From NCBI GenBank assembly GCA_964486045.1, contig CAZALK010000024.1, positions 1-53,066 on the forward strand: a stretch of DNA of 53,066 nt. Reading direction: 5' to 3'. Source of the DNA: an uncultured archaeon. Lineage in GTDB: Archaea; Asgardarchaeota; Lokiarchaeia; Sigyniarchaeales; SOKP01. Shown piece after piece: positions 49,955-51,379 of the stretch. Position 1 is the stretch's first letter. Every line of letters starts with the position of its first letter. Under the pieces are notes generated by a model that had not been told where the DNA came from, searched no databases, and saw only the letters and a list, made by a program, of their open reading frames with translations. The position numbers were made by a program, and so were the translations under genes.

Positions 49955-51379
49955 ATGCGGTTAAAAAAAGAAGAAGGGATGGAAAACATTGAACAAATAA
50001 AAACTGTCATAGATGAGTTTATAAAACCCGAACCAAAAATTATCTCTATGGCAGTAATAGAGGGCGAAAAAGATATTGTATTTTCCACGGATAATTGGGA
50101 TATCAGTAATGATATTCAAAAAATAATAAAATTTTGGAATGAAGTAGAAAAAGAAGAGAATTTTATTGAAGAAAGAATACAGAATCTATCGAAAGAATTA
50201 CAGGTTTTAAAATCCAATGATAGGGTGGGTACCAAAGAGATCTCGGAAGAGATTATGAACTTGTACAAAGTATTAACAAAATACTATAATCAGAAAATTA
50301 CACATCCTACTCGTATTATTGTTTCCACAGAAACCTTCATAATATTACAATGGACTACAAATAAACTTATAGCTGTCTCCATGAGTAAACACGGAGGATT
50401 AGTTGGATTTAAAGACGAGGAGAGAAGAATAATCTATAAAATAGCAGATGAGGGGTCTTTACCTTTAGGATTAATAGAAGCGTCTAAAGAATTACAAGAG
50501 CGTAGCTTAAAAGAACCATATAAGAAGCCTAGTGCATCCTTAGGCAAAAGACCTAAATGGACGACGCCAAGAATTCTTCTCGACGATATAAGTAACCTGC
50601 AAGAATTAGGGTTACTTAAATTTGGATTAAGTATCGAAGAAGCAAAAGTATACTTATCTTTGTTAAAGAAAAGGAAGCATGGTGATAAAGTGGGAAGTTT
50701 AAATGAGGAATTAGATATTAAAAGGACAACAATATACAGAATTATAGATAGATTAATAGAAAAAGAGTGGGTAGTAAAATTACCAGGCATGTCAAAAGGT
50801 GCCCAAATTTATATTTCAAGGCCATTAAACAATATTCTTGACGAAAGAATTCAAGAGAAAGATGAAGAATTGAAAATTTTAAAAAGTTTTCGTTTTATAA
50901 TGGGTGAAGAACTCGAAAACGGATGGATTGATATGTCTGGAGTAGATAAAGATCTTCAATCTTTTAAAAGAAATGTTTATGGATTTAAAACTTTAGGAGT
51001 AACAGGAGTTGAAAAAGATTGTGGGCTTCTTATCTTTGAATATGGAAGTGTTGTTGAAAATAATATAGTAGTCCAAGCAGCACTTCAATTATCATGCGAA
51101 AAACTCAAAATGGGATTACAAATAGATGATGACATAGAAGAATTTAAAAACCCAGACCTAGAAGATGTAAAATTTGATTTTACAAATATTCAGGATTACT
51201 TGGGGGCTATAATGTATCTTAAATTCAAAGAAGGAAGTGAAACGGCTAATAATGTAGGAGGAGATTGGATTATTGCTGCTAAACAAGTTGCGATTCCTAT
51301 AAAAGAGAAGGTAAATGTTATCTGGGGCTCCGAAGAAAAATTCCCAATACTATTAGAAATTGTATTAAAACTTCAGTAA
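49955..51379 (+). CDS. Profilin-like domain fused to a TrmB-type HTH regulator (start may be ATG 49979)
   Basis: N-terminus IKTVIDEF...MAVI...FSTDNWDISNDI aligns with the profilin at 43637; central FGLSIEEAKVYLSLL...IKRTTIYRIIDRLIEKEWV is a TrmB HTH. Confidence 0.75.
   Translation: MRLKKEEGMENIEQIKTVIDEFIKPEPKIISMAVIEGEKDIVFSTDNWDISNDIQKIIKFWNEVEKEENFIEERIQNLSKELQVLKSNDRVGTKEISEEIMNLYKVLTKYYNQKITHPTRIIVSTETFIILQWTTNKLIAVSMSKHGGLVGFKDEERRIIYKIADEGSLPLGLIEASKELQERSLKEPYKKPSASLGKRPKWTTPRILLDDISNLQELGLLKFGLSIEEAKVYLSLLKKRKHGDKVGSLNEELDIKRTTIYRIIDRLIEKEWVVKLPGMSKGAQIYISRPLNNILDERIQEKDEELKILKSFRFIMGEELENGWIDMSGVDKDLQSFKRNVYGFKTLGVTGVEKDCGLLIFEYGSVVENNIVVQAALQLSCEKLKMGLQIDDDIEEFKNPDLEDVKFDFTNIQDYLGAIMYLKFKEGSETANNVGGDWIIAAKQVAIPIKEKVNVIWGSEEKFPILLEIVLKLQ

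Follow-up and report, generated by a model that had tools for sequence, protein, structure and literature searches.

Results

A profilin fusion behind a second actin gene

The window, by which we mean the whole stretch of 53,066 nucleotides that was analysed, contains an ORF (49955-51379, forward strand) that encodes 474 amino acids and combines a profilin domain with a DNA-binding domain. Comparison with relatives suggests M9, at 49979, as its true start. Upstream on the same strand lie a gene for a small protein and a second Lokiactin gene, preceded by a TATA box and a palindrome (Table 1). We refer to this arrangement as the module.

Table 1. Features of the module and a stand-alone profilin in the window.
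Feature	Position	Strand	Description
Stand-alone Loki-type profilin	43637..44017	-	Comparison only, outside the conserved module; matches 5YED (E 1e-15)
Extra half-site	48282-48287		Beside the candidate operator
Candidate operator	48299..48326	.	Core TGTCAC-N6-GTGACA at 48304-48321, 11-bp perfect arms (motif scan)
TATA box (TTTAAATA) of the actin gene	48325..48332	+	Right half-site of the operator overlaps the BRE position
Ribosome-binding site and start of the actin gene	48509..48525	+	GAGGTGG; non-canonical ATT start
Second Lokiactin	48523..49668	+	381 aa; identity to the core copy (genome contig C1) about 82%
Small conserved protein	49692..49907	+	~65-70 aa, between actin and fusion; DGIPC hairpin, C-terminal amphipathic helix
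Profilin domain of the fusion	49982..50509	+	aa 10-185 (profile, Foldseek, tree)
Helical-hairpin insert	50138..50296	+	52 aa, aa ~62-114, rare allele (spacing, model)
TrmB-type winged helix and following long helix	50615..50902	+	aa 221-278 and aa ~291-316 (Pfam, model)
C-terminal alpha/beta domain	51017..51379	+	aa ~355-474; also in ~290-aa regulators without profilin; weak likeness to Mog1/PsbP

The initial annotation read the N-terminal part of this ORF as profilin-like, with a helical insertion of about 50 residues, fused to a helix-turn-helix, and all three points held. As a single sequence, residues 13-64 match the Loki profilins 5YED and 5ZZB (E-values of 1e-4 and 7e-4). A profile built from 117 family members covers the profilin fold and matches 5YED (2e-13), 5ZZB (1.5e-12), Odin profilin 5ZZA (2e-9) and 7PBH (5e-8), so that Loki, Odin and Thor profilins are all represented. 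The AlphaFold model of the fusion has a mean pLDDT of 66.6 and a pTM of 0.33, and with the latter value the full-length model gives no domain packing. The best five Foldseek matches to this model are Odin and Loki profilins, followed by TrmBL2 (E-value of 4e-4) and eukaryotic profilins. No GAF, PAS or roadblock structure is among the best 50 matches listed, so profilin stands as the identity of the domain and these three were rejected. Pfam Profilin matches neither the fusion nor the stand-alone Loki profilin. A three-strand motif that contacts actin is a criterion for profilins (PMC10933270); in the fusion it is modelled as strands, is conserved, and is central in the predicted interface with actin. 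Both the sequence profile and the structure support an Asgard-type profilin fold.

The winged helix matches the TrmB family (PF01978) with an E-value of 6e-10 and 39.2 bits, above the cut-off of 25.6, and its recognition helix, KRTTIYRI, is nearly invariant among relatives. The long helix modelled after it is likely a dimerisation coiled coil, and TrmBL2 is among the Foldseek matches. Across 97 members, the C-terminal domain has no Pfam match, PF11495 included, and its Atlas feature match to PF11495 is weak (0.82). Folded alone it reaches a pLDDT of 78, and fold searches place it nearest to structures of Mog1/PsbP type (Apa, Z 6.5; DcrB, 6.2; Mog1, 6.0; rmsd 4.7-5.1), the best of them (Z 6.5, rmsd 4.7) over 113 aligned residues. 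This likeness is weak and lies below the level that shows kinship. The initial annotation did not recognise the usual TrmB sugar-binding domain here, and fold searches with the domain do not list it either, an absence that does not amount to exclusion. The fusion is TrmB-like through its winged helix only. The C-terminal domain as a second profilin was rejected (hhalign probability of 0.1%).

The insert is a recurring, optional feature

The spacing between the NWD motif and the strand motif that follows it is 81 in the fusion versus 29 in 99 relatives. The difference is an insert after the NWD helix; compared with the family, Loki profilin-1 has six additional residues at this same point. In the model the insert forms two long helices (pLDDT 53-80), and one heptad register is 67% hydrophobic. 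The insert pointed out in the initial annotation is not a trait of the family: only 8 of 110 relatives carry one, with the 52-aa type common to seven and a different, 45-aa type in one, and it occurs in none of 32 other scorable GTDB loci. As a rare allele it is not a core feature of the fusion. A third insert, of ~103 aa, occupies the same place in P0219, and the loci read for the three types (P0003, P0022 and P0219) sit behind an actin gene. The insert is under purifying selection (pN/pS of 0.084/0.284), and its allele is paired with two different C-terminal domains, which points to recombination across the conserved winged helix. Both the 52- and the 45-aa types have a tryptophan after a conserved glutamine, a position at which no insert-less relative has one. 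We rejected an origin of the insert by internal duplication or from another part of the genome, as no match was better than an E-value of 0.27. A single origin of all inserts was likewise unsupported, as the 45-aa insert of P0022 aligns at an E-value of 12 and groups apart.

The profilin domain is predicted to contact the operon actin

The predicted complex of the operon actin with the profilin domain, insert included, scored 0.81, versus 0.05 for the best control; the mark for this score is reached by 58 of 80 solved pairs and by 2 of 110 mismatched ones. The pLDDT of the partner is at least 80, and at least 82% of the contacts are shared between runs. The predicted interface is the barbed face of actin, where the insert would add contacts at actin residues 117-121 and 182-186 without blocking the interface. 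Because solved Loki and Odin profilin-actin structures exist (5YEE, 5ZZB, 5ZZA), the score shows likeness rather than binding, and we treat the actin contact of the fusion as a prediction. On average, conservation in the profilin domain is no higher at the predicted interface than in the rest (0.54 versus 0.63, the latter including the core). The central hairpin motif, I-[LI]-Q-x-T-x-[ED]-[RK], with hairpin residues at aa 130-133, is conserved, and its glutamine is 99% conserved. The insert, as an optional extension at the Loki insertion site, probably tunes actin affinity or selectivity.

Fusion and second actin are inherited together

In the window's family, 45 of 46 fusion loci have an actin gene or its remnant directly upstream on the same strand, a count taken from kin genomes that are not independent. 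Core Lokiactin is 95-100% identical across the family. The operon actin is a second copy, 81-86% identical to core, and among the matches listed all 42 actins in that range adjoin a fusion. The gap between actin and fusion is only 43-90 nt in about half of the loci. In a tree with Lokiactin outgroups (one with distant ARPs was uninformative), the operon actins form a single clade (99.4/100) nested in the core Lokiactins of the family, with far longer branches. On this tree they are a faster-evolving clade, duplicated from core Lokiactin. The actin and fusion trees have 13 of 38 splits in common. The module is real and co-inherited, and this fixed link of the fusion to a duplicated actin gene and its promoter palindrome is the special trait that the initial annotation missed.

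The operon actin falls within the Lokiactins and has intact phosphate and adenosine motifs, and 185 positions are identical to core in all 42 copies. Its pN/pS is 0.07/0.67 against L089. Divergence is concentrated in the D-loop and subdomain 2, where identity to core is 60%, versus 90% at the predicted profilin face. The gene has no in-frame ATG, GTG or TTG before codon 49. Behind a ribosome-binding site, the gene starts at ATT in 21 loci (the window and 20 others); at this position four loci have TTG, and most of the rest ATG. In L012-L014 and L043, the ATT immediately follows an in-frame stop. The small ~70-aa gene between actin and fusion is present in about half of the loci and gave 22 matches in 21 of 161 genomes, all within the actin-fusion interval. 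Atlas and PDB searches with the small protein returned nothing usable.

Some modules have decayed (L082-L086): variously, they retain no more than C-terminal remnants, lack the actin, or have an actin that is missing its 5' half. The fusion of L085 has no actin, and the locus L007/L086 has lost both the 5' half of the actin and the motif.

A palindrome precedes the operon actin

TGTCAC-N6-GTGACA occurs exactly in 28 of 43 upstream regions and with at most two mismatches in 40 of 43. Only a spacer of six gives such counts, and among 2000 random control windows of 400 nt, six reached two mismatches and none did better. Of 42 loci scored, 34 have 3 nt and 5 have 4 nt between the right half-site and the TATA box. 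In the 5.18-Mb genome, the candidate operator is the sole site at up to one mismatch. Of 135 genomes, 31 have a single exact copy of the motif, which in 28 of them precedes the operon actin. A wider regulon was rejected, with no second site in this genome and with three stray exact matches elsewhere within chance. Since the palindrome was not found before core actin or other profilins, control by the fusion would be local. A sigma-70 scan was set aside as not applicable to archaea.

Genomes that have a close ~290-aa paralogue of the fusion and no fusion itself (such as G147, G153, G163, G247 and G266) lack the palindrome. The motif does not follow this paralogue, which we rejected as its binder. 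The candidate operator resembles the TrmBL1 site, TATCAC-N5-GTGATA (PMC4706686, PMC4158304), and we consider it very probable that the fusion protein binds the palindrome. TrmB is a repressor that acts from a site overlapping BRE/TATA, whereas activation by TrmBL1 takes place from upstream sites (PMC4706686, PMC4158304); here, either sign of control is therefore possible.

Origin, distribution and surroundings

The fused profilin domain is closest to a 215-aa extended Loki profilin (bootstrap 90 for the family together with the extended profilins) that is near-universal in the order and shares with the fusion the tail after the domain. This extended profilin is the likely donor of the fused domain; it has a C-terminal extension, occurs in most genomes of the order, and in this genome lies on contig C1 (L047:4581-5225). 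The winged helix and C-terminal domain derive from the family of ~290-aa profilin-less regulators. One such paralogue lies within about 4 kb downstream of the fusion in L003, L020, L028, L039 and L040.

A search of 400 Asgard genomes for the co-occurrence of profilin and TrmB-type winged helix, which the initial annotation had proposed, found no full-length fusion outside the family of the window, which has 45 such loci in 44 genomes and one more that a contig end truncates. The fusions are patchily spread (about 45 of 135 genomes), and none was found in the sister family's closed 4.4-Mb and 6.0-Mb genomes.

Domain parsing bore out the profilin-winged helix architecture itself. The accompanying argument, that profilins are normally single-domain proteins, is weak, as profilin fusions are not rare in Asgard archaea: partners include Ras/Roc GTPases, Sir2, LRR and MIT domains (P0203, P0216, P0261, P0266, P0211, P0269, P0297, P0311) and, in another Lokiarchaeia family, an LCM-type SAM methyltransferase joined to the extended profilin (L081:3950-5212, reverse strand, and P0210). 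A second, unrelated architecture joins winged-helix domains to a C-terminal profilin (L107:194-1699, P0305; L108:4001-6205, P0292); no actin gene is among the neighbours seen at either locus.

Around the module, an HD gene recurs as a neighbour in 34 loci. The stand-alone profilin of the window has no counterpart in other fusion loci. A 20-codon remnant of a UvrA-like N-terminus (48192-48251, forward strand) lies just upstream of the operator, and intact UvrA-like genes often precede the module in relatives. Further upstream, a QueG-like 4Fe-4S gene (47114-48033, forward strand) has an in-frame TGA at the likely cysteine of an iron-sulphur motif (47822) and a later frameshift, and is more likely a pseudogene than a case of selenocysteine. 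The window also encodes an AAR2-like protein (45290-46132, reverse strand) with both Pfam AAR2 domains above the cut-off; AAR2 is a eukaryotic U5 snRNP assembly factor. By eye, the protein at 44405-45238 (forward strand) looks secreted; like archaeosortase targets, it has a PGF motif, then a hydrophobic helix and a basic tail at its C-terminus.

Discussion

The best reading of the module, which we hold to be somewhat better than an even bet, is that the fusion is an autoregulatory transcription factor that senses actin monomers. As a one-component factor it would control its own operon, comprising the second actin, the small protein and the fusion itself. A dimer formed through the helix after the winged helix would bind TGTCAC-N6-GTGACA beside the TATA box, where it would most likely block TFB through the overlap with the BRE; we regard repression as the likelier sign and activation as appreciably less so. 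The profilin domain would bind the barbed face of monomeric actin, and its occupancy would change DNA binding, so that output of the second actin would follow the pool of free actin, most simply as negative feedback. We infer binding to the motif, its alteration by actin and the sign of control. The C-terminal domain could be the true effector site.

Other readings give the same parts different roles. The fusion may regulate the operon with a profilin domain that no longer senses actin in vivo, the signal being a lipid, a small molecule or another protein received by the C-terminal domain or the profilin fold, and the second actin a stress-induced target. The ~290-aa paralogues, in which winged helix and C-terminal domain work without a profilin, fit this account, as do the many unrelated domains to which the extended-profilin subfamily is fused, the average conservation of the predicted actin interface, and accessory neighbours such as a UvrA-like ATPase, a glyoxalase, methyltransferases, HD and AbrB/MazE. 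However, among the profilin fusions whose context was read (L081, L107, L108 and the window's family), only that of the window's family adjoins actin, and it does so almost always; the near-invariant glutamine of the central hairpin and a predicted complex that scores past the mark also speak for actin. We consider this account unlikely.

We give still less weight to the reading that the second actin, rather than being a filament subunit, is a partner reserved for the regulator, a nucleotide-state switch that works as co-repressor or inducer, possibly with the 70-aa protein as a cap or release factor. A diverged D-loop and subdomain 2 beside preserved nucleotide motifs and profilin face would suit such a partner, as would a small protein confined to the module and a conserved ATT or TTG start, which may mean low translation. 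Yet the actin is full length and more than 80% identical to filament-forming Lokiactin, retains the positions shared with core in every copy, and has a tree that agrees with that of the fusion in only about a third of splits. Least probable, and in our view very doubtful, is a ParMRC-like tether of site, actin and adaptor, in which the fusion would position or segregate DNA by connecting the palindrome with actin ends, with autorepression as a by-product. The patchy distribution is compatible with a tether, and the gene order of site, actin and adaptor matches that of type II partition loci. Instead of an iterated centromere array, however, we found one palindrome with at most a half-site and no iterons; replicon and integrase genes are absent among the recurring neighbours, the HD gene marks a recurring chromosomal context, and profilin is established as a binder of monomers.

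The preferred reading, an actin-sensing autoregulator, sets the module beside several known systems. With Loki profilin-1 and -2 and the Odin and Thor profilins (5YED, 5YEE, 5ZZB, 5ZZA, 7PBH), the fusion shares the fold, the NW motif, the actin-contacting strand motif, the insertion site after the second helix and predicted barbed-face binding. Those profilins stand alone, whereas the domain in the fusion derives from the 215-aa extended paralogue and is joined to a DNA-binding module, and the window's allele further differs from them by its 52-aa hairpin. In animals, free actin monomer bound by a transcription regulator sets the output of actin genes (MRTF-SRF). The likeness to the fusion is one of logic, not homology: MRTF uses RPEL motifs and nuclear shuttling, and the fusion would unite sensor and DNA-binding domain on one promoter. 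Arcadins are not known to be DNA-binding regulators. Like the module, ParMRC and the crenactin-arcadin cluster (arcadin-2 is cited in PMC9834061) pair an actin-family gene with a co-encoded binding partner (a predicted one in the module), ParMRC also with a promoter site, but the module's actin is a near-eukaryotic Lokiactin, its partner is of profilin type and its palindrome is single. TrmB, TrmBL1 (Tgr) and TrmBL2 of Thermococcales have in common with the fusion the PF01978 winged helix with long helix and, through its candidate operator, a similar palindrome and a BRE/TATA site, and autoregulation has been reported or proposed for several members of the TrmB family (PMC4158304). Unlike them, the fusion has no match to the sugar-binding domain, carries an N-terminal profilin and would have a single local target rather than a sugar regulon.

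The component families are known, as is G-actin feedback on actin genes, in animals and through unrelated proteins. Sensing of a cytoskeletal monomer is not known from any prokaryotic transcription factor. The literature that we searched, in part, holds no catalogue entry for the architecture and no description of the fusion or the operon, and a prior mention may exist. We see about an even chance that a profilin-fused DNA-binding protein directly reads the pool of free actin monomers and feeds back on a dedicated actin gene. Such a system would be a prokaryotic counterpart, built independently, of G-actin/MRTF control in eukaryotes, its sensor tuned by exchangeable coiled-coil inserts.

The module addresses the question of how Asgard archaea control the amount of their actin. 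By naming a regulator, a likely ligand and a site defined to exactly 18 bp, it makes the idea testable on purified proteins without a culture, and it exposes a family-wide second Lokiactin with a changed D-loop.
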